From NCBI GenBank assembly GCA_963756875.1, contig CAVWPA010000003.1:1600001-1664000 (forward strand): a DNA stretch of 64,000 bases. The letters are read 5' to 3'. The DNA comes from an uncultured Verrucomicrobiae bacterium (GTDB lineage Bacteria > Verrucomicrobiota > Verrucomicrobiia > Chthoniobacterales > UBA10450). The position numbers and the translations under genes are program-made. The notes below the pieces were generated by a model. The model was given only the letters and a program-made list of their open reading frames with translations. It was not told the origin of the DNA and did not search any database. Below, in pieces: positions 11,526 to 61,757 of this stretch; within the stretch, counting starts at the first letter, position 1; each line of letters begins with the position of its first letter.

Positions 11526-12565
11526 CACCGCAATTGACCGTTAATTTACTGCGTACGCTGTTTGTCACGTTTACTGCGACGGTCGGCGCCCTCATTTCGG
11601 GAGAACTGGAGGGCACCCCCTGGCCCGGGGTCGTGCTCGGCCTGCTTCTGGGCCTGATTGTGGTTTTGATCGACCGGTTGCTCAAAGGATTTTCGCTGCG
11701 CCTGTTTTCATCGGCGACTTTTGGGCTTTTGCTTGGACTGATTTTCGCCAATCTGCTGCTGGCTTCGGATGTCCTGCATTATCAGCCGGAGACCGCGCAA
11801 TGGGTGGTTCGGCTTATCGTTTACTGCACGTTTGCTTATCTCGGCATGATGCTGGCGATGCGGAGCAGCCGTGACGAATTCTCGCTGATCATTCCGTATG
11901 TGCGCTTCGCCCGGGAAACGACGCAACATGAACCGCTGGTCCTCGATACCAGCGTCATTATCGACGGCCGGATCGCCGAACTTTGCGCAACCGGTTTTCT
12001 CAGCCAGTCGCTGATTGTGCCGCGATTTATCCTCGGCGAACTGCAAACCCTGGCCGATTCGCGTGATCCGATCAAACGCGAGCGCGGTCGTCGGGGTCTT
12101 GAGATGCTGAACGGTCTCCAGCGTTCACGCGATGTAGAGTTGACGATCCACGAAAGCACAAGCGAGGAAGGCGCTGAAGTGGGTGCGGACGCGCGTCTGG
12201 TGCGTACAGCCAAGGTGTTACAAGCGCGGCTGTTGACGAACGACCATGCGCTTTCGCAGGTAGCACGGCTGCAACAGGTGCCGGTCCTGAATTTGAGCGA
12301 CCTTACACGCGCGCTGCGGCCGTCGGTGGTCGCCGGCGACGAGCTCGAACTGGCGTTGGTAAAGGAGGGCCGCGAACAACATCAGGCGGTCGGGTACCTC
12401 GCAGACGGCACAATGATCGTCGTGAACCATGCGCGGCCTCATGTCGGCAAGACAGTCAAGGTTGCCGTCGCGAGCGCTTTGCAAACCGGCGCCGGCCGGC
12501 TCATTTTCGCCGAGCTCAAAGGCGAACCTTTCGCCCGGCCCGTTCTCGCGCGGCAGTCAGCCTGA
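11522..12565 (+). CDS. Membrane PIN/TRAM-domain protein (YacL-like)
   Basis: Four TMs, LDTSVIIDGRI, RGRRGL, GYLADGTMIVV, LQTGAGRLIFA. Confidence 0.9.
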   Translation: MTPQLTVNLLRTLFVTFTATVGALISGELEGTPWPGVVLGLLLGLIVVLIDRLLKGFSLRLFSSATFGLLLGLIFANLLLASDVLHYQPETAQWVVRLIVYCTFAYLGMMLAMRSSRDEFSLIIPYVRFARETTQHEPLVLDTSVIIDGRIAELCATGFLSQSLIVPRFILGELQTLADSRDPIKRERGRRGLEMLNGLQRSRDVELTIHESTSEEGAEVGADARLVRTAKVLQARLLTNDHALSQVARLQQVPVLNLSDLTRALRPSVVAGDELELALVKEGREQHQAVGYLADGTMIVVNHARPHVGKTVKVAVASALQTGAGRLIFAELKGEPFARPVLARQSA

Positions 12566-12606
12566 TTCCGGAACCACGCGCGTTCCGCCTTCCGCCGGGC
12601 GAGTCG

Positions 12607-13206
12607 CTACTTTGGATGCGATTCCGGCTTGTTATCAGATTCATTCTGCTCGCCGCTTCGCTGCATGTGCATCGTCCACAACGCCGACCAGCTTTTTCCT
12701 TCGTCTTTCGAGATGGCCAATTCCCAGTCCACCGAATCGCCGGAAATATTGGAGAACGTAATTCGGCCCATCCGTTCCCCTTTCGGCGTCTGCCATGTCC
12801 TGAAAAATTCGCCGCGTCCTTTCTCGAAGCTGCCTGAATAAGGAGTTCCAAAGTACGGCCTGCCCGTGTCCATCCAGTGAATGTACCATTTCTGCGTTTG
12901 AGGGTCGTAGGCGCGCACACTGAGTCCCTTCATCGGCTCGGGCTTCTGCATCCCTTCCCAGAAAAACTGAACTTCTCCCTGCCAATGCTCGATCAGAGCG
13001 GATCCATTCAATGTTTTTGAGACCGAGGTCTTTGCTTCCAACTCGAGCCACGTCCCGTCTTTCTGAAGAATCTTTTGCTGGATATTCCAGTCGCCAACCC
13101 AGAAATCGAAAGCGCGCGCCGCTGCCACCACAGGCGAATTCGTGGATTGGGCCAGACAGGCTGCGGCGACCATCGCGAGAATGAAAGTGAAAGCAGGTTT
13201 CTTCAT
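12607..13206 (-). CDS. Secreted hypothetical protein (DUF1579-like)
   Basis: Signal peptide; FDFWVGDW, RAYDP..KW.IHW, S.DEGKSW motifs. Confidence 0.65.
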   Translation of the reverse strand: MKKPAFTFILAMVAAACLAQSTNSPVVAAARAFDFWVGDWNIQQKILQKDGTWLELEAKTSVSKTLNGSALIEHWQGEVQFFWEGMQKPEPMKGLSVRAYDPQTQKWYIHWMDTGRPYFGTPYSGSFEKGRGEFFRTWQTPKGERMGRITFSNISGDSVDWELAISKDEGKSWSALWTMHMQRSGEQNESDNKPESHPK

Positions 13207-28445: not shown

Positions 28446-28504
28446 CTAGCCATGGCTGCGCCAACCCGCATCATTTCTCTTAACCTCGGCTCGCAAACGC
28501 GAGT

Positions 28505-28566
28505 TGTAGTGGCAGGCGTGCCGCCTGCAAAACTTGCGGAACGCAGCCGGCACGGCTGCCTCTACA
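28505..28566. repeat. GTAG REP doublet (same family as the rho repeats)
   Basis: tgtagtggcaggcgtgccgcctgc ... gcagccggcacggctgcctctaca. Confidence 0.88.
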
Positions 28567-28589
28567 GTTTAATCGCGCAATTCTAGTTC

Positions 28590-30350
28590 ATGGCGACGCC
28601 AACCCGCATTATTTCTCTTAACCTCGGCTCGCAGACGCTGGGCATGGCGGAGTTTCGCGCGCAGTCTCATGGCGGCCTCGTTTTGCAGGCCTGCGTTCTG
28701 CGCGAACTGCTGATCGATCCCGCGGGTGAGGGGATGCGGCGTTCGCAGATTGCCCCGGCTGTGCGGGAGATGATGGACGAACTGCAAATCAAAAGCGGCA
28801 ACGTCAATTACGCCGTCGCCGGACAATCGGTCTTTGCACGCTTCGTCAAACTTCCCGCGGTGGAAGAGGAAAAGATCGAGAAGATCATCGCGTTTGAGGC
28901 GCAGCAGAATGTTCCCTTTCCCATCAACGAAGTCGTTTGGGACTATCAACTGGTCGGCGGCGGCACGGACGAGCAAATCCAGGTCGTGCTGGTGGCGATC
29001 AAGGCCGACTTGCTCGATGAGATCAACGGCGCGGTTGAAGACGCCGGATTGCGCACGTCGATTGTCGATGTCGCGACGATGGCTTTGTACAACGCGTTTC
29101 GTTACAACTACAGCGACCTGACCGGCTGCTCGTTGCTCGTCGATATCGGAGCGCGCACGACCAACCTGTTGTTTGTCGAGCCGGGAAAGATCTTCTCCCG
29201 AAGCGTGCCGATTGGCGGAAGCTCAATTACCTCGGCCATTGCCAGGGAATTCGACGAGCCATTCGCGGCCGCGGAATCCCGGAAAAAGCGGGATGGGTTT
29301 GTCAGCCTTGGCGGCGCGTATGCGGAGCCGTCCAATGCCGAAGTTGCGCGCGTATCGAAAATCATGCGCAGCACAATGACGCGGCTGCACGCGGAGCTGA
29401 TGCGCTCCATCAGCCATTATCGCGCGCAACAACAGGGTCAGGCGCCCGAGCGCGTATTTCTCTGCGGTGGAAGCGCGACGACGCCTTATATGCGCGAGTT
29501 TTTCCACGAGAAATTGCAGTTGCCGATCGAATTTTTCAATTCGTTGCGCAACGTGGCTGTTGCCGAGTCGGCGCCGGTGGAGGAGATCGGACGCTCGGCC
29601 CATTTGTTCGGGGAGCTCGTTGGGCTGGCCTTGCGGCAAGTAAGCGCTTGCCCGATGGAACTCAACCTGCGTCCGGCGAGCGTAATTCGCCGGCAGGAGC
29701 TTGAAAACCGGCGGCCGTTTTTCGTCGCGGCGGCCGCCTGCGTGCTTCTCGCTTTGCTTGGCTGGGCTGGATATTACTCGCGCGCGGCAGGCGTTGTCCG
29801 GCACAACACCGACGAACTTCAGGGAAGAGTGAATGCACCGATGCGCGCCTCCGAAATCAAGATCGACAAACTGCGCAGGGAAGCAAAATCGCTGGACAGT
29901 CTTGCCACACCGTTAAACGAAGCGATCAATTCCCGCTTTTTTTGGGCGGAAATTCTGGAAGATCTGAATGCGCGTCTTCCCAAGGAGGATATCTGGATCA
30001 CCGACCTGATCCCGATGTCGGGAGGAAAACCGATCGGCGTGGACGAAAAGGCGGTCCCGCAGTTTGCGCCGAGCCCTACGCCACAACCGGCAGGCGCGCG
30101 GAGACCGGCCGCCAAAAAGGCGGGTGCGCCGGAGATTGACGGACTTTTTGTGCGCGGCCTTTATCTGTTCAATCCGAAGCAACAGGAAGTGGTGGTCGAT
30201 TATTTCCGCAATCTGGTCGGCTCGCCGTTTTTCGATCTCGATCCGAACAATCAGTCGCGTTACATCAAGCCGAGCACGCCGAACAACACCGAGTGGGCGT
30301 ACCCGTATGAGCTGCGTTTGGATCTGAAAAAGCCAATCCCGTTGCCATGA
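28590..30350 (+). CDS. pilM: PilM-like actin-fold protein fused to a PilN-like region (Amuc_1101-like)
   Basis: FEAQQNVPFP, VDIGARTT, FLCGG, GLALR, then a TM and periplasmic domain. Confidence 0.88.
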   Translation: MATPTRIISLNLGSQTLGMAEFRAQSHGGLVLQACVLRELLIDPAGEGMRRSQIAPAVREMMDELQIKSGNVNYAVAGQSVFARFVKLPAVEEEKIEKIIAFEAQQNVPFPINEVVWDYQLVGGGTDEQIQVVLVAIKADLLDEINGAVEDAGLRTSIVDVATMALYNAFRYNYSDLTGCSLLVDIGARTTNLLFVEPGKIFSRSVPIGGSSITSAIAREFDEPFAAAESRKKRDGFVSLGGAYAEPSNAEVARVSKIMRSTMTRLHAELMRSISHYRAQQQGQAPERVFLCGGSATTPYMREFFHEKLQLPIEFFNSLRNVAVAESAPVEEIGRSAHLFGELVGLALRQVSACPMELNLRPASVIRRQELENRRPFFVAAAACVLLALLGWAGYYSRAAGVVRHNTDELQGRVNAPMRASEIKIDKLRREAKSLDSLATPLNEAINSRFFWAEILEDLNARLPKEDIWITDLIPMSGGKPIGVDEKAVPQFAPSPTPQPAGARRPAAKKAGAPEIDGLFVRGLYLFNPKQQEVVVDYFRNLVGSPFFDLDPNNQSRYIKPSTPNNTEWAYPYELRLDLKKPIPLP

Positions 30351-30594: not shown

Positions 30595-31563
30595 ATGAAC
30601 TGGTTCCGTGAAAATCGCTGGCTTGGCACGTTTCTGATCGTGTTCGCGATCTGCACGCTGATCGCGATTTATTTTCTTTTCAGTTCCAAGAGTGCTTTTG
30701 AAGAGGCGTCCGCGCGCTTCAACGATGCGGCGGCGGAGCGGACCCGGCTGGAACATCTTAATCCATTTCCCAACGAGGCGAATTTTCGGCAGATGAAAAA
30801 GCACATCGAAAATTACGGGTTGGCGCTGAAGAAACTGAAGGAAGAGTTAAAAACGCAGGTGCTTCCGGTAACGCCGATGGCGCCGAACGAATTCCAATCG
30901 CATTTGCGCCAGGCAATGGCGTCGACGGCGGACAAGGCGCGCGCCAACCGGGTAAAGCTGCCGGAAAATTTTCAGCTTGGCTTCGATGAATTCACCACGG
31001 CCTTGCCCAATACAGCCGCGGCGCCGTCGCTCGGACAGGAGCTCGCTCAAATTGAAGTGCTCATGAATATCCTGATCGATGCACGAGTGGATGCGCTGAC
31101 TGCGTTCAAGCGGATGCCGTTGCCGGAAGAGAAGAATGCCGCGGCGGCGACGCCAACGCCCATTCCGCGCCGGAGAACTGCAGCTTCGGCGCCGATCGGG
31201 CCGAAGATGCTTGAGCAGGCAGTTGTCGATCTTACGTTTACGTCATCGCCTTCGGCGGCCAGGAAAGTTTTGAATCTGATCGCAAGCTCGAACCAGCAAT
31301 TCTACATCGTCCGTTTGTTGCACGTTCACAACGAGCAGGAAAAAGGACCACCGCGCGAGCAACCGGGCGCGGGGGGAGGAAGCAACGGCGCCGCCGAGAC
31401 CCGTTCGACAGACTCAGGGCAGGCTAATTCGGCCTCTACAGGGCCCGCAACCGGAACAGTTGCCGGGCCGAAGCCGACACCGAGCGCCGCCATCAAATTT
31501 ATCGTGGGCAACGAGCACATCGACGTGTCGGCAAGGATTGAGATTGCGGGGTTCGATTTTTGA
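30595..31563 (+). CDS. Amuc_1100-like pilus-associated protein (PilO position)
   Basis: N-terminal TM, coiled coil, FQLGFDEF...LP, C-terminal FIVGNEHIDV; synteny with pilM and the secretin. Confidence 0.75.
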   Translation: MNWFRENRWLGTFLIVFAICTLIAIYFLFSSKSAFEEASARFNDAAAERTRLEHLNPFPNEANFRQMKKHIENYGLALKKLKEELKTQVLPVTPMAPNEFQSHLRQAMASTADKARANRVKLPENFQLGFDEFTTALPNTAAAPSLGQELAQIEVLMNILIDARVDALTAFKRMPLPEEKNAAAATPTPIPRRRTAASAPIGPKMLEQAVVDLTFTSSPSAARKVLNLIASSNQQFYIVRLLHVHNEQEKGPPREQPGAGGGSNGAAETRSTDSGQANSASTGPATGTVAGPKPTPSAAIKFIVGNEHIDVSARIEIAGFDF

Positions 31564-31565
31564 GA

Positions 31566-32219
31566 ATGAAATTGGATGACAACGAACAGGCCTTGCGTGT
31601 CGGCAATGCGTGCGCCGCCGGATCGGGGAGCGCACGCGCCTCGCGTGCTCTTTCCGGCGCCTCGCCGGAAAGTTCCTGCGAAATTCATTATTCCAAGCGA
31701 AGACTTCCGCATTTTGAGCGGCCGTGGGCGAAGTATGCTGTCTGTTTTGCTACGTATCTCCGATCTCGGCTTTCAGTCGCAGAACGAGATCTTGTTTTGC
31801 AAAGCATTCTATACGGCTATCGGACAAATCAATACGAGCTGTATGCGGCATGTGTGATGCCCGATCATGTTCACCTGCTCTTTGAGCCACAAATAAAAAT
31901 GGAAGGCGAAAGTGGGCAGACTATTTTTTGGTCCTTAACCGAAATTCTGAAGGGTATCAAGTCCACGACCGCGCATCGGATCAACAAGGCCGCTGGGAAA
32001 ACCGGTCCGGTTTGGGAAAAGGAATCGTTTGATCGATTGATTCGATCAGAACCGGATTTACAGGAAAAATTTCGATACATTTGCAGAAATGCGTGGGACT
32101 CCGGGATTGTCGGACCTTCGGAAGATTATCCCTGGTTGTGGACACAAGATGGGTCTTCGACGAGGGCGTCGAAGACGGCACGCGAGGCGCGTGCGCTCCC
32201 CGATCCAGCAAGCGCGTAA
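31566..32219 (+). CDS. REP-associated tyrosine transposase (Y1/HUH), RAYT1
   Basis: RRLPHF, MPDHVH (HUH), WEKESFDRLIR, YICRN; enclosed by family A REP arms. Confidence 0.88.
   Translation: MKLDDNEQALRVGNACAAGSGSARASRALSGASPESSCEIHYSKRRLPHFERPWAKYAVCFATYLRSRLSVAERDLVLQSILYGYRTNQYELYAACVMPDHVHLLFEPQIKMEGESGQTIFWSLTEILKGIKSTTAHRINKAAGKTGPVWEKESFDRLIRSEPDLQEKFRYICRNAWDSGIVGPSEDYPWLWTQDGSSTRASKTAREARALPDPASA
31620..32206. mobile_element. Putative autonomous REP element: perfect 29-bp IRs enclosing the RAYT1 core
   Basis: ggatcggggagcgcacgcgcctcgcgtgc (31620-31648) / gcacgcgaggcgcgtgcgctccccgatcc (32178-32206). Confidence 0.75.
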
Positions 32220-33194: not shown

Positions 33195-35950
33195 ATGACG
33201 AAGAATCCGCAGAAGTCCTCCGCGCGCAGAAACACGCTCATATATCCTGTAGCCACGCCCCTGTGGGGCGTCTGTTCGAGCGAGGGCGACGGCGCGCAGC
33301 GCCGTGGCTACAGCGTGCGCAATTGTGCGACGGTGATTACCGCGCTCGCCGCCGTTACTCTGTCAGTTGTTTCTGTGAGCTTCGCGCAAAATGTGGATCG
33401 TATCGAGACCAAGGAAGTTCAGCGGCGCGAAGCTGCGATCCCACAGGGCGCCGAAGCGCTGGCGGCGGGCCAGGTGGCGATGAAGGAAAGGAATTATGCC
33501 GTCGCGCACGAGCAATTTCGAACGGCGGTGGCGTTTTTGCCCGGAAACGGGCACGAAGACGCGGTGAACGGTTTTTGCGACAGCGGCGTCAAGCTGGCGG
33601 AGGAGAAAATTGCGGAAGGAAGATACGCCGAAGCGGAGTCAATCGTGCGTGATATTTTGGCCGATCGTTACAATCCCAATTGCAGGCCTGCGCTCGAGCT
33701 TCTCGCTCATTTGGAGACGCCCGGCTACTTCAATAAAACGATGGGGCCGAAGTTCATCGCCAAGGTTGAGGAGGTGAAACAGCTTCTGACCGATGCCGAA
33801 GGATATTACCAATCCGGCCGTTACGATTTGGCGTTCAAGAAATACGAGCAAGTGCTGGCGCTCGATCCGTACAACACGGCCGCCCGTCACGGCGAAGAAA
33901 AAATCGACAATACCAAATATCAGTACAACAAGGAGGCCTACAACGAAACACGGGCGCGCGAGCTTTGGAAGGTGGAGAAAGGCTGGGAAGAACCGGTCAA
34001 GCAATATGGGAAAAACGTCGGCCCGCTGGCGGAATCATTCCAAAGATCAAGCGCCGGCACGGCCCAGATCACGAACAAACTTAACTCGATCATCATTCCG
34101 CACATCGAGTTTCGGGACGCGAGCATTCGCGAAGCGATAGATTTTCTCCGTCAACAGGCGGCTGCCAATGACACGTCAACTGAGGGGAAAAAGGGAGTCG
34201 ATATCGTGCTGCGTTTGACGCCGATGGGTCAGGGTGCGGCGCCGGCCGCGGTTCAGCCAGCATCCCCCGCAATGGAAACTGCGCCGGCGGCGGGCGGCCC
34301 CGAAGGGGCTGCGGCCACTCCTATTCCCCTGGCGCCGGTCGTGGCGCCGTCCGTGGTTGCTGCTCCGCCGATTTCACCGGCGAACGCTCGAATCACGATC
34401 ACGTTAAACCAGATTCCACTGGGTGAAGCGCTGCGTTACATCGCCAGCCAGGCCGGGCTGAAGGTCAAAGTCGATCCGTACGCGGTTTCGATCATTCCAC
34501 TGAACGAGCAGAGTAACGATTTGGTCACGAAAGAATACCGGGTTCCGCCCGGTTTCATTACGACTACCGTGAACGCCGGGGCATCCATCATTGAATGCGC
34601 CGGCAACGCGCGTCGGTGCCGGAGGGGCCGGCACAGGCGCCGGAACCGTTGAATCCACCGGAGGCCAGCCGCTTGTGAATCGCGAGGGAGCCAAGGAGTT
34701 TCTGCAGAGCCAGGGCGTGCCATTTCCGCCGGGAGCCAGCGCCAATTTTCTTCCACAAAGCAGCCGCCTGATTGTCCGTAACACGGAGGACAACCTGGAG
34801 CTGGTCGATGCGCTGGTGGAACAGGCGAACGTCTCTGGGCCGAAGCAGGTCGAGATCGAATCAAAATTTATCGAGATCACACAGACCAATTTGAAGGAGC
34901 TCGGCATGGATTGGCTGCTTCAGCCATTCAATATACCGGTAACCTAATGTTTAGCGGCGGAACTTCTGGAAACGGGGTCCCTGTGAACCCGGTCGAATTT
35001 CCTTTCACAGTTGTCGAACGCAGCCGGCACTCGGATTCCCATCGGTCAGCAACCTGTAACTGCCGGCAATCGGAGCGGCAGACTTCGCCATTACGCAGGA
35101 TGCGATTGATTCGCTGCTCGCGGGGACGACGGGACAAAAGAATACCGCGCCCGGAATCTTTGGCCTCAGTGGGACTATCGGAAACGCTACATTCCAGGCT
35201 GTGCTGCGCGGATTAAACCAGAAAAAAGGCATAGACTTGCTTTCAGCGCCCAGCGTAACGACAAAAAGCGGTCAGCGTGCTGTTATTGAGATTGTCCGTG
35301 AGTTTCGTTATCCGACGCAGTTCCAACCACCGCAAATTCCGCAGACGGTTGGTAGCACCAACGGAGCCAGTCGGAGGGGCAGCATCGATTCCAGTCACAC
35401 CCACTACGCCGACGGCCTTCGAAACGAGGAATACGGGCGTTACACTGGAAGTCGAACCGGTGGTGGGACCGGACGGGACTACGATCGATCTTAATCTCGT
35501 TCCACAGGTGGTCGAATTCGAAGGCTTCATCAATTATGGCAGTCCGATTCTTGCCCCTGCATCATTTACGGTTAATCCGCTTGGGAACGTCTTTACCCAG
35601 CCTCGACTAATAACGCCGAATGTGATCAATCAGCCGATCTTCAGCTCGCGCAAGGTGACAACTAGTGTGAGCGTCTGGGATGGACAGACCGTCGTGCTTG
35701 GCGGTCTGATGCGCGAAGACGTACAAAAAATCGAGGACCGCACGCCGATTATCGGAGACATTCCGCTTTGTCGGTCGCCTTTTCCGCACAAATGCCGACC
35801 AGCACATCAAGACGCAACCTCGTGATTTTTGTGACCGCGCATCTGGTGAACCCAGCCGGTCAGCCGATTAATCAGCCCGGCGAAGAAGAAGAAGAACAGG
35901 AAGCGGTGACGCCTCCGATGTTGCCGGAACTGCCGGCGTACAAAAAGTAA
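33195..35950 (+). CDS. TPR-containing secretin (PilQ/GspD-like, Amuc_1098-like), several frameshifts
   Basis: QVEIESKFIE, LLSAPSVTTKSGQ, NTGVTLEVEP, DGQTVVLGGL, PIIGDIP, RNLVIFVT are spread over several frames between 34.6 and 35.8 kb. Confidence 0.85.
33248..33312. repeat. GTAG REP doublet within the 5' end of the secretin ORF
   Basis: tgtagccacgcccctgtggggcgt ... acggcgcgcagcgccgtggctaca. Confidence 0.8.
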
Positions 35951-42104: not shown

Positions 42105-42704
42105 ATGCCTGCCATCGGAATCACGGGCGGAATTTCCACGGGCAAATCCACGTTTTGCCAGGTCCTGCGGGAGATGATGCCCACGGCGAAATTTTTCGAT
42201 GCCGATCAAGCGGCACACCAGCTGGTCGATCTTGACCCTCAGGTAAAAAAAGAAATCGCCTCCGAGTTCGGCGCGGAACTCTTTTCGCGCGAAGGGGACT
42301 TGAATCGGAGGGCGTTAGGGGCGATAATATTCCGAGACGCTGCCAAAAGACAGGCGCTCGAGCAAATTCTCCATCCGCGGATTCGCCGGCAATGGAGTGC
42401 CGAAGCGGAAACGCATCGCAAATCGCACGACTTTTTCTTCGCAGATATCCCACTTCTTTATGAAACCGGTGGCGAAACACTGTGCGACCGAGTGGCGGTG
42501 GTAGCTTGTTCGCCAGCCAATCAGGTCGCCAGGCTGCGTAAACGCCGCGCCGTGGAGCGGGAGACCGCCGAGGAAATGATCAAATCACAAATGCCGCTGG
42601 AACAAAAAATATCCCGTGCCGATCACGTCGTTTGGAACAACGGCGACCGGGGGCTGCTCAAACAACAGGTGGAGCTATTGATCGCGCTCTGGCGAAGGCA
42701 ATGA
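42105..42704 (+). CDS. coaE: Dephospho-CoA kinase
   Basis: IGITGGISTGKS, DAD, LEQILHPRI, DIPLLYE, SQM. Confidence 0.94.
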   Translation: MPAIGITGGISTGKSTFCQVLREMMPTAKFFDADQAAHQLVDLDPQVKKEIASEFGAELFSREGDLNRRALGAIIFRDAAKRQALEQILHPRIRRQWSAEAETHRKSHDFFFADIPLLYETGGETLCDRVAVVACSPANQVARLRKRRAVERETAEEMIKSQMPLEQKISRADHVVWNNGDRGLLKQQVELLIALWRRQ

Positions 42705-42728: not shown

Positions 42729-42780
42729 GGTAGAGCGCGCTCGCCGAGCGCGCCGGACGGCCCGGCGGTCCGTCCCTACC
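42729..42780. repeat. GTAG REP doublet in the rho leader
   Basis: ggtagagcgcgctcgccgagcgcg / ggacggcccggcggtccgtccctacc. Confidence 0.75.
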
Positions 42781-42792
42781 AAGAATTTTGAA

Positions 42793-44591
42793 ATGGACGA
42801 AAATATAAAAGATCAGGAATTCTCGGACGCTCCTGTGGAGCCAGAGAAAACGCGTGCGGATTCAAACAATGCAGCCGACACGGCTGCCGCTAAAGAAGAG
42901 GGGGCTGTAGAGGCAGGCGTGCCGCCTGCGGGGAAGACGAAAGGAAATGCAGCCGATACGGCTGCCGCTAAAGAAGAGGGGACTGTAGAGGCAGGCGTGT
43001 CGCCTGCGGGGAAGACGAAAGGAAATGCAGCCGACACGGCTGCCGCTACAGAAGAGGGGGCTGTAGAGGCAGGCGTGTCGCCTGCGGGGAAGACGAAAGG
43101 AATGCAGCCGACACGGCTGCCGCTACAGAAGAGGGGACTGTAGAGGCAGGCGTGTCGCCTGCGGATACTGGTTCCCCGAAGGCTTTCGGTGGCATTAGAG
43201 AAAAGGATGCAGCAGAGGCGACGGAGCCAACTGTAGAGGCAGGCGTGTCGCCTGCAGGGAAAACCGAACGCAACGCAGCCGGCACGGCTGCCACTACAGA
43301 AGAAGGGGAGGAGCAACCGCGTGAAATGGCGCGCGCACTGGATCTGAACGAGTTGCAGGCGCTTTCGCCCAAGGCTCTTGATTCGGTGACGCGTGAGTTT
43401 GGTCTGCACCTTTTTCCCACACGCTCGCGTCATCATCGCATCCTCGATCTCGCACGCGCGGCATTGGGCCGCGGTTCGATCGTCACCGCCGAGGGTTTTC
43501 TCGATCAGGCCGACGATTCTTCCGTTGGTTTTTTGCGCTGGCCGAAATTGAATTTTCTGCCGGTGCCAGAGGATGTTTGCGTCCCGCGCGCCGTGATCCA
43601 GCGATTTCATTTGCGGCCGGCGCAGCGCGTTGCCGGCACACTTCGCCTCCCGCGCGATCGCGAGAAAGGTCTTGTTCTGGATGAAGTCACCACGATTGAA
43701 GGCCAGCCGGCGGAGCAATGGACGGAGCCGGCGGACTTCGAAAAACTGACGCCGCAATTTCCGCAGGGACGCATCATGCTGGAAAATACCAAGACGGGCT
43801 CGATCAGCGCGCGCGCGGTCGATCTTCTTGCGCCGCTGGGGCGCGGCCAGCGCGGCTTGATCGTGGCGCCGCCGCGCGTTGGCAAAACGATTTTGCTAAA
43901 GGAAATCGCCAAGGCGATTCGAGTGAATCATCCGGACATCATTCTGATTCTGCTTTTGGTGGACGAGCGCCCGGAAGAAGTGACCGATCTCGAGCGCGAG
44001 GTCGATTGCGAGATTTACCATTCCAATTTCGATGAAAGCGTGCAGCGGCACGTGCAGGTGGCGGAGCTGGTGCTGGAACGCGCCAAGCGCCTGGTGGAAA
44101 TGAAACGCGATGTGGTCATTCTGCTTGATAGCCTCACGCGGTTGTCGCGCGGTTACAATAATCTGCAACCGAGCAAGGGGCGCATCATGTCGGGCGGAGT
44201 GGAAGCCAAGGCGTTGATTAAGCCGAAGAAATTTTTTGGCTCGGCGCGCAATGTCGAAGAAGGCGGCAGCCTGACCATCCTTGCGACGGCGCTTATCGAA
44301 ACCGGCAGTCGCATGGACCAGTTGATCTTCGAGGAATTTAAAGGCACGGGGAACATGGAGTTGCATCTCGACCGCGCGCTGCAGGAGAAACGGTTGTATC
44401 CGGCGATCCACCCTTTGCAATCGGCGACGCGCCGCGAGGACCTGCTTTATCACCCCGAGGAATGGGAACGCGTCCAGTTGTTGCGCAAAGGGATGGCGGC
44501 GCTGCCGCCAATCGAAGCGATGGAGAAATTGATCGAGAATCTCGAAGTCACGAAAACGAACGCGGAGCTGTTGTTGAGCGGTTTGAAATGA
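42793..44591 (+). CDS. rho: Transcription termination factor Rho with repeat-derived N-terminal extension (1-nt frameshift near 43100)
   Basis: [58 protein letters not shown]; adding one A joins 42793-43143 to the core. Confidence 0.92.
42868..43299. repeat. Tandem 78-bp REP-doublet array (about five units) inside rho
   Basis: Units start at 42868, 42946, 43024 and 43101: aatgcagccgacacggctgccgcta(a/c)a-gaagagggg-ctgtagaggcaggcgtgtcgcctgc. Confidence 0.92.
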
Positions 44592-44594
44592 GAG

Positions 44595-44726
44595 CAAAAG
44601 CTCCAAGCACCAAGTTCCAAGCACCAGAGAAGTACCAATCCTCAATCTCCAAAAGCTGGATGCGTGTTCATTTGAGGATTGGAGCTTGGAATTTCACTGG
44701 ATGTTGGTGCCTGGGATTTGGAGCTT
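44595..44726. repeat. Inverted heptamer arrays, same family as 28312-28445
   Basis: aagctccaagcaccaagttccaagcacca... / ...ttggagcttggaatttcactggatgttggtgcctgggatttggagctt. Confidence 0.75.
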
Positions 44727-61349: not shown

Positions 61350-61757
61350 TAGAAGCCGTCTCATAAATAGGGATGGCCGCGTGGCTGTTGTTTTTTGGTT
61401 TGAACAAGGCGCGACGAGGAAGGATATCCGAATGGATCTGCGACCGAGGAGCAACGCAGCTCAAGCCGAAAAGCGACGCCACCCAAGGGGCAAGAGCACT
61501 TTAGGGTGCCTGGCGACGTTGCTCGCTCCTTACAGACCGCAACGGGTATGCTCGTCGCTTGCGCCCTGCCAGACGCCCTAAATTGCTCTTGCGAGGCCAA
61601 CCCATATTTACGAGATGGCTTAGCACTGTTGAAAAGCTTAGCCGGAGCGGGATTCCTGTGGTGGCAGCCGTGCCGGCTGCGTTACGTTTTGCAGGCGACA
61701 CGCCTGCCTCTACAGAGTTACGATAAGAGGCTTTTCAACAGAGCTAGATGGCTTCTA
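61350..61757. mobile_element. MITE with 20-bp terminal IRs, right end interrupted by a second MITE
   Basis: tagaagccgtctcataaata (61350-61369) versus the reconstituted tatttacgagatggcttcta; long internal imperfect IR. Confidence 0.78.
61622..61745. mobile_element. TGTTGAAAA-type MITE with 9-bp TSD, carrying a REP doublet
   Basis: agcactgttgaaaag / cttttcaacagagct; TSD agatggctt at 61613-61621 and 61746-61754. Confidence 0.85.

Follow-up and report, generated by a model that had tools for sequence, protein, structure and literature searches.

Tandem REP doublets at the 5' end of rho in an uncultured Verrucomicrobiae bacterium: probable amplification of an old in-frame palindrome

Repetitive extragenic palindromic (REP) sequences are extragenic by definition, and those lying in frame within genes have been catalogued and only rarely traced through evolution. 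In this study, we analysed a window of 64,000 nucleotides from an uncultured Verrucomicrobiae bacterium (positions 1,600,001 to 1,664,000 of contig CAVWPA010000003.1, assembly GCA_963756875.1; positions without a contig name refer to the window), in which the 5' end of rho, the gene of the termination factor Rho, carries a tandem array of REP doublets. The long-read assembly (2.69 Mb, G000) comprises three contigs, C2 and C3 among them. It is likely that the array derives from a REPIN (an inverted REP doublet) of a family with a REP-associated tyrosine transposase (RAYT), that this element was ancestrally in frame in the coding extension of rho, that it varied in ways that preserved its hairpins and that it was amplified here into an array resembling a bacterial interspersed mosaic element (BIME).

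The rho locus and its REP array

The gene following coaE encodes both the RNA-binding domain of Rho (PF07497) and a RecA-type ATPase domain (PF00006; scores in Table 1), which identifies it as rho. Upstream of these domains, Tandem Repeats Finder reports a repeat at 42868-43164 with a period of 78 bp, 3.8 copies, 96% matches and a score of 545. The units start at 42868, 42946, 43024 and 43101, and each 78-bp unit (26 codons) consists of a minus-type arm (GCAGCCGACACGGCTGCCGCTACA), an 11-nt purine-rich linker, a plus-type arm (TGTAGAGGCAGGCGTGTCGCCTGC) and a 19-nt spacer. The units, their starts and the two arms agree with what the first-pass annotation of the window had described, as does the change at the end of the minus-type arm in units 1 and 2, which terminate in CTAA and not in CTAC. 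Across 42871-43162 the arms follow the order minus, plus, minus, plus at spacings of 36 and 41-42 bp, which is the regular alternation of REPs expected of a BIME-like array. A unique stretch of 67 nt follows the array, and then a fifth doublet (43232-43298), which lies 27 nt before an ATG at 43326. In this genome the array has thus expanded to 5.5 doublets (about 130 codons), and nine REP arms are present at the locus.

Unit 3 (43024-43100) is only 77 bp long because one A is absent from its end: the sequence reads GGAATG at 43099-43104 and GGAAATG at the other unit joins. The open reading frame (ORF) from the ATG at 42793 encodes 116 amino acids (aa) and closes at a TAG (43141-43143) inside the GTAG of unit 4, and the rho frame is open from about 42972 through 44591. 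With one added base the locus becomes a single ORF of 1800 nt, that is 599 codons and a stop, as had been proposed from the short third unit in the first pass. In the public annotation the locus is already split into proteins of 116 aa and 479 aa.

The RNA of the array is predicted to fold with -149.1 kcal/mol (z = -9.17), and none of 200 shuffled sequences was as stable. The sense strand is G-rich (120 G, 69 C). A REP pattern written in IUPAC code matched the genome 70 times and its reversed control did not match at all; by this measure and by the z-score of the fold, the array far exceeds what chance would produce.

The arms belong to a GTAG-type REP family. Their consensus, GTAG-N-GGCAG[GC]CG-TGN-CG[GC]CTGC, contains a stem of 7 bp, a loop of 3 nt and an unpaired 5' GTAG tag. 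Copies number 74 by exact regular expression and 118 when up to 3 mismatches are allowed; they are spread over the three contigs, mostly as inverted doublets 33-50 bp apart. Two free doublets of the same arms lie elsewhere in the window (28506-28565 and 61658-61713), where the first pass had already placed them. Among 24 other genera of the family, 13 have at least one match to the REP pattern, and the 16 genomes from other families of the order have none. Of five stand-alone Y1-transposase ORFs scanned against NCBIfam, four pass the RAYT model NF047646. The RAYT ORF at C3:11963-12409 scores 95.6 bits (cut-off 80) and is flanked by four and three doublets, whose arms lie at 11642-11957 and 12420-12649, so that the transposase gene stands between REPs of its own family. 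The same doublets also form intergenic arrays, with periods of 87, 82 and 83 bp (C3) and 80 bp (C2); of all the arrays seen, only that in rho has a period that is a multiple of three. Judged by the sequence, a REP doublet from a GTAG-type family with a RAYT has been amplified in tandem at rho, in the manner of a BIME.

Table 1. Features at the rho locus and free REP doublets in the window
Feature	Position	Strand	Basis
coaE (dephospho-CoA kinase), gene upstream of rho	42105..42704	+	PF01121 CoaE, E 3.6e-50
Palindrome of a second GTAG...CTAC REP family, between coaE stop and rho ATG	42730..42779	+	Sequence
Rho start codon, ancestral by comparison, with unique leader (25 residues) in A/U-rich unpaired context	42793..42867	+	M-[DE]-x starts of relatives; start shared with P0001 and P0122; fold
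Tandem array, 3.8 x 78-bp units	42868..43164	+	Sequence, Tandem Repeats Finder, fold z = -9.17
Missing-A site, -1 frame shift	43099..43104	+	Sequence and reading frames
TAG ending the 116-aa ORF, within the GTAG tag of the unit 4 plus arm	43141..43143	+	Sequence
Unique spacer between array and last doublet, 23 residues in rho frame	43165..43231	+	Sequence
Terminal REP doublet of ancestral type: plus arm, GK-containing spacer, minus arm; 22 residues in rho frame	43232..43298	+	Doublets of relatives
Conserved Rho body, 421 aa	43326..44591	+	PF07497 (49 bits), PF00006 (81.8 bits)
Free REP doublet, family of the rho array	28506..28565		Arm search
Free REP doublet, family of the rho array	61658..61713		Arm search

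Other repeats were seen around these elements. The second family of GTAG...CTAC palindromes has 53 copies of its 5' 14-mer genome-wide at up to 2 mismatches. Its member at 42730-42779 splits coaE from rho here and is absent from the coaE/rho junction of the related loci L004 and L012. On either side of the free doublet at 28506-28565, within 28452-28640, about 49 nt of the 5' end of a gene (ATGGC.GCGCCAACCCGCAT.ATTTCTCTTAACCTCGGCTCGCA.ACG) are present in two nearly identical copies. The gene start looks duplicated along with the doublet, and the related locus L007 is similar, with rho start plus doublet duplicated. At C2:23186-27799, an ORF of 1538 aa, which we take to be methionine synthase, contains an in-frame insert of about 190 aa that matches Y1_Tnp and is bordered by SARASRA-type segments. 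The window ORF at 31560-32219 is a stand-alone homologue of this insert; it scores 70.1 bits with NF047646, under the cut-off of 80. Another dispersed repeat, with units of the GGAGCTTGGAGCTT / CCAAGCACCAAG type, lies downstream of rho (44595-44700, and also in loci L001 and L002) and recurs near other genes.

The rho extension in related genomes

Relatives were drawn in two samples, chosen regardless of REPs: one genome per genus, and the first 60 genomes of the family listed by similarity of the Rho body. Together they gave 81 loci, two of which run into contig ends and were left out of the assessment. In all 41 related genomes compared (41/41), the alignment of Rho begins within residues 1-17 of the 421-aa body, whose first codon is at 43326. 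In 72 of the 78 loci with at least 300 nt upstream, an M-[D/E]-x start lies 18-107 codons (median 40) ahead of the body in the open rho frame; in 76 of 78 relatives this frame continues without a break from an in-frame ATG upstream as far as the Rho body, palindromes included where they are present. In L004 and L012 the rho ATG overlaps the coaE stop (...GAAAAATGGACGAAA...). At 42793 the same ATGGACGAAAA is present in the window. Because of these shared starts, the ATG at 42793 is, on comparative grounds, the ancestral rho start, and the array therefore lies inside ancestrally coding sequence.

REP arms (up to 4 mismatches in 23 positions) were found in the rho extension of 30 of 79 relatives, belonging to nine genera; the unpublished genomes G014 (locus L009) and G007 (L017) are among the positives and the negatives, respectively. 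No arm was seen in 49 relatives, one in 19, two in 10 and seven in a single locus, L007. Outside L007 the arms are always read in one frame, as VEAGVSPA (plus arm) and AADTAATT (minus arm), and the terminal doublet of the window (43232-43298) matches the doublets of the 30 relatives in position, orientation and frame. The presence of an in-frame doublet in the rho extension of 10 genera, that of the window included, suggests that the element was inserted once, long ago.

The nearest sequences are two metagenomic Rho proteins, P0001 and P0122, which fall into the same 90%-identity cluster as the Rho of the window; P0001 is 88% identical to it over 481 aligned residues. Both share its N-terminal 10 residues, and in both 1.5 units are read through into the body in one ORF of 512 aa. 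A third protein, P0002, is an intact ORF with two units. The number of units therefore varies among close relatives (1.5 in P0001 and P0122, 2 in P0002 and 5.5 here), which bears out the first-pass suggestion of an extension of variable length. Two metagenome scans and one scan of a genome collection for DNA of the same species found no match.

The Rho sequences of relatives hold further small inserts. In P0001 and P0002 the plus-arm loop carries SSDRVRPAAD or SPRRVRPLAD; in five loci (L004, L078, L101, L112 and L119) it carries NASPARTV, and the insert of L004 looks palindromic by eye. P0010 and L111 contain peptides of the GRSPDRPGG- or GRSLDRPG-type, which look like translations of another palindrome family. 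In the metagenomic Rho P0006 (525 aa), about 42 additional residues (GPGFGGQPHQSRPRVESNDNGRRGW...) lie in the ATPase domain just past the conserved EEVTDL. The short-read contigs of L069 (G261), L071 (G262) and L094 (G062) break off within the rho 5' extension or shortly before it, and these ends may mark repeat arrays.

The genome also carries a second Rho-like gene (C3:741745-743091), whose 448-aa product is about 50% identical to residues 56-416 of the Rho of the window. In this protein an Arg-rich N-terminus (RRRRPRRRYPRRRYY) replaces the N-terminal helical part, and a counterpart is present in all relatives searched.

Assembly error or frameshift at the array

The absent A in unit 3 may be an assembly error, in which case Rho has 599 aa, or a real frameshift, in which case Rho starts at 43326; we hold the two to be about equally probable. 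If the frameshift is real, the array lies outside Rho and amounts to an upstream ORF of 116 codons plus a leader that folds strongly: a REP-encoded peptide of 116 aa would be made from 42793 and a Rho of 421 aa from the ATG at 43326.

The quality of the assembly was gauged by aligning ORFs from 1.4 Mb of G017, the closest genome with long contigs, to this genome. In 661 aligned ORFs (191,504 residues, about 575 kb of coding sequence) there were 31 candidate frame switches. Eleven were set aside, since one open frame of this genome spans both parts and the break may be that of G017. At the other 20 no single open frame spans both parts, which amounts to about one break per 29 kb of conserved coding sequence. 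Breaks fall in SecA, an aconitase-family gene (twice), an isocitrate/isopropylmalate dehydrogenase-family gene (twice) and an AcrB-type pump, at sites that include C2:62887, C3:1119194-1122299 and C3:1489750. An earlier pass had found two further breaks near 35767-35811 in one gene of the window, which is presumably secretin-like. Because these genes include indispensable ones, such breaks must be assembly errors, and at this rate the annotation of the genome will hold many false split genes.

This error rate speaks for an assembly error at the array, as do several features of the locus itself. Both frames are open there, and the units are 78 bp long apart from the one base. The ATG at 42793 lies in an A/U-rich, unpaired context, while that at 43326 lies, according to the predicted fold, in paired GC-rich RNA, 183 nt past the upstream stop. 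A GGAGG upstream of 43326, which the first-pass annotation had offered as a start signal, carries no weight because Shine-Dalgarno (SD) motifs are not enriched in this genome: SD-like 4-mers precede 11.6% of 1481 long ORFs against a background of 9.6%. Furthermore, the only other array, in L007 (genome G011), also lacks 1 nt, inside a hairpin loop at the GCAGCCGATA-GGCTGCC site; the open rho frame of L007, searched as far as three codons beyond the first aligned residue, contains no ATG, GTG or TTG. The deletion in L007 is most simply explained as an assembly error, which suggests that such arrays are error-prone in assemblies.

On the other hand, two observations weigh against a Rho of 599 aa. 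The breaks in this assembly are nearly all +1 insertions (17 of the 20; of the three scored as deletions, one represents two insertions and two are ambiguous), so that a -1 error would be atypical for it. In addition, an ATG within -6 to +3 codons of the body start occurs in one of 79 loci, that of the window (43326), and the nearest relatives, P0001 among them, have Lys where the window has Met. A real frameshift would also agree with the split public annotation, and the second Rho paralogue could buffer a lowered expression. An earlier view, that the ATG at 43326 was part of a 3-codon insertion relative to G017, was withdrawn: against P0001, the nearest sequence, it is a Lys-to-Met substitution and the length is unchanged.

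Two other ways of joining the frames were set aside. Inspection by eye of 43086-43143 in the frame of ATG 42793 (ACG AAA GGA ATG CAG ...) revealed no slippery X XXY YYZ heptamer for programmed -1 frameshifting, and the run of A at the missing-A site has only 2-3 bases, which does not favor transcriptional slippage.

Persistence of the palindrome and its possible roles

Among the relatives, the stem of the plus arm occurs in three classes, namely GGCAGGCG...CGCCTGC, GGCAGCCG...CGGCTGC and GGCGCCCG...CGGGCGC, which are translated with G..P, A..A and P..G, respectively. Two residues of the arm thus change between the classes, and the pairing is retained. The minus-arm stem GCAGCCG/CGGCTGC likewise switches to GCGGCCG/CGGCCGC, GCGGCTG/CAGCCGC or GCCGCCG/CGGCGGC, and the last Thr codon of this arm, which closes CTACA, is ACA in 28 of 28 cases. 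In the alignment of the plus arm (A1; 19 sequences), 94.7% of the cells are paired and 15 double-change cells fall in 3 pairs; in that of the minus arm (27 sequences) the values are 95.2%, 13 and 2. None of 500 shuffles reached these values in either arm, and in slid registers 15-73% of the cells were paired. Five VEANASPA-type rows with a loop insertion were omitted from A1, and L009 from both A1 and A2. We rejected a conserved peptide motif as the principal constraint, since the encoded residues differ where the stem covaries. The entity that persists in rho is accordingly the palindrome, most likely as a nucleic-acid hairpin, and not the peptide motif.

Some caveats apply to these counts. 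The aligned sequences are related, and kinship inflates the shuffle tests. Stems of these classes are also found in the genomic REP pool, so that replacement of arms from this pool would be as good an explanation of the stem changes as compensatory change in place. REP peptides were counted in 90 of 113 metagenomic Rho proteins, a figure set aside as a measure of prevalence because the query itself contained such peptides; the unbiased figure is 30 of 79.

Moreover, rho is not the only gene with such elements. In-frame REP doublets were also found in FtsK, a 1479-aa UvrA-like protein, a family-B DNA polymerase and MutS, as well as in the linker of a 2-oxoacid dehydrogenase E2 and in gamma-glutamyltranspeptidase. 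FtsK served as a control: arms (up to 4 mismatches) occupy the same loop in 5 of 21 loci of the family and in none of 8 outside it, and decayed relics are seen in others. In the same genus-level sample, REP arms occur in rho in 4 of 21 (up to 5 mismatches). As far as these comparisons go, long persistence of an in-frame REPIN is a general property of the lineage and rho is not special. Since the FtsK doublet also crosses genera, generic tolerance in loops and disordered tails explains most of the pattern.

The REP doublet in rho is most likely a tolerated passenger of a permissive coding segment. The extension is acidic, rich in Ala, Thr, Glu and Gly and typical of disorder. Two translated stretches have a mean Kyte-Doolittle hydropathy of -0.73 and -0.77 and a net charge of -9 and -10, and the residues L, I, M, F, W, Y and C make up only 3 of 102 and 2 of 75 positions. 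An insertion would have been tolerated because of this low-complexity, disorder-like composition. The REP identity of the doublet may then have been kept by general REP maintenance, either by exchange with the genomic REP pool or by a general structural constraint, and replication slippage between near-identical 78-bp units probably expanded it to 5.5 doublets here. Only a unit of 3n nucleotides can amplify without destroying the ORF, because the ORF has no downstream start.

It is possible, although we consider it rather unlikely, that the doublet is instead a selected regulatory RNA acting in cis on the coaE-rho transcript, through partly Rho-dependent pausing or termination, stabilization of the coaE mRNA, or both, and with feedback on Rho dosage; additional copies would then strengthen the attenuation. 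The pairing that is retained even at the cost of amino acids, the extreme stability of the array (z = -9.17) and the report that E. coli REP arrays act as partial Rho-dependent terminators and stabilize upstream mRNA (bioRxiv 10.64898/2026.03.23.713779, in the parts available to us) agree with such a role. Our estimate is low because the FtsK doublet persists across genera in an unrelated gene, and because the sense strand of the array is rich in G (G 120, C 69), the opposite of classic rut sites, and so lacks the C-rich, G-poor composition of a Rho loading site. A bolder scheme, which we regard as improbable, makes the family-wide REPIN in rho a Rho-sensing attenuator: a mobile palindrome would have been recruited as the feedback element of the very termination factor that acts on such palindromes, and its copy number would tune Rho dosage. 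This genome would then show the extension in the course of becoming an upstream ORF and leader, as the array expanded, the frame shifted and one Lys-to-Met change created a new ATG.

Selection for the peptide itself, as an acidic disordered tail of variable length that tunes the activity or condensation of Rho, appears improbable. In its favor, 76 of 78 relatives keep the frame, the composition is disorder-like, atypical Rho proteins with disordered extra regions are common in the Planctomycetes-Verrucomicrobia-Chlamydiae (PVC) group (PMC11347177, as far as available to us), and phase separation has been reported for the Rho of Bacteroides thetaiotaomicron (PMC10284900, likewise in part). However, the frame must be kept anyway because the relatives have no downstream start, 49 of 79 relatives carry no recognizable arm, and the covarying stem residues change (G/A/P and P/A/G) while the pairing is kept. 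The first-pass annotation had proposed that a mobile palindrome was exapted as a disordered domain of Rho. Its view of a REP origin, of a coding Rho extension and of a variable unit number is upheld here; exaptation of the peptide is not, since stem changes alter its residues and the FtsK doublet behaves alike. Its alternative, a hairpin array that tunes rho expression, would be in keeping with the preserved hairpins, and the scenario it named as a refutation, a real frameshift with a start at 43326, is about as probable as an assembly error.

Rickettsia palindromic elements (RPEs) are tolerated in surface or terminal segments of proteins and are typically single insertions, unlike the tandem array described here. 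They too are palindromic mobile repeats that lie in frame in conserved protein genes (cited in PMC3733652); RPEs and the rho array belong to different sequence families and are likened by description only. Closer parallels are the intragenic GTAG-type REPs of Di Nocera, De Gregorio and Rocco (2013, PMC3733652). According to the parts of that paper available to us, these are hairpins inside ORFs, often dimers encoding 20-30 residues, which reach their highest number in the verrucomicrobium Opitutus terrae and are over-represented in genes of repair and replication, uvrA among them; the genes that carry in-frame doublets here (UvrA-like, MutS, polymerase B and FtsK) are of the same kinds. Its Additional file 3 contains no match for 'rho' or 'termination factor'. 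Beyond what is described in those parts, the present case adds tandem amplification to 5.5 doublets, orthology across genera with stem covariation, and a location in a start-proximal extension with a conserved start codon.

The E. coli BIME/REP arrays such as REP325 are made of regular alternating REPs in 1-12 units of variable copy number; in the accessible parts of their description (bioRxiv 10.64898/2026.03.23.713779) they are exclusively extragenic, whereas the present array lies within, or ancestrally within, the coding region of rho itself. REPIN-RAYT systems, as portrayed in the sections of PMC2817692, PMC5581495 and PMC8049555 that we could consult, comprise inverted REP doublets and a cognate single-copy RAYT flanked by REPs, and persist vertically over long periods. 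There REPINs are described as extragenic, while at least seven genes carry them in frame here. The N-terminal extra region of atypical Rho in the PVC group is compositionally biased, variable in length and predicted to be disordered; in the part of that survey available to us (PMC11347177) palindromes are not mentioned, and in the present lineage part of the region can be traced to a mobile repeat. In-frame REPs and disordered Rho extensions are thus already known from the accessible parts of these sources (PMC3733652, PMC11347177). Our literature search found no cross-genus orthologous REPIN inside rho, no stem covariation at the cost of the peptide and no BIME-like amplification in or just off a reading frame.

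The results carry a practical warning, since the annotation of loci with REP arrays is unreliable: short-read contigs of at least three relatives end there, and both arrays in long-read assemblies have single-base gaps. They also allow one orthologous REPIN to be followed inside rho through at least 10 genera, with a hairpin apparently preserved at the expense of the peptide and an array caught in a long-read assembly. The locus thereby provides a system for asking how selfish palindromes persist in essential genes, how disordered protein tails originate and whether REP hairpins feed back on the expression of Rho.

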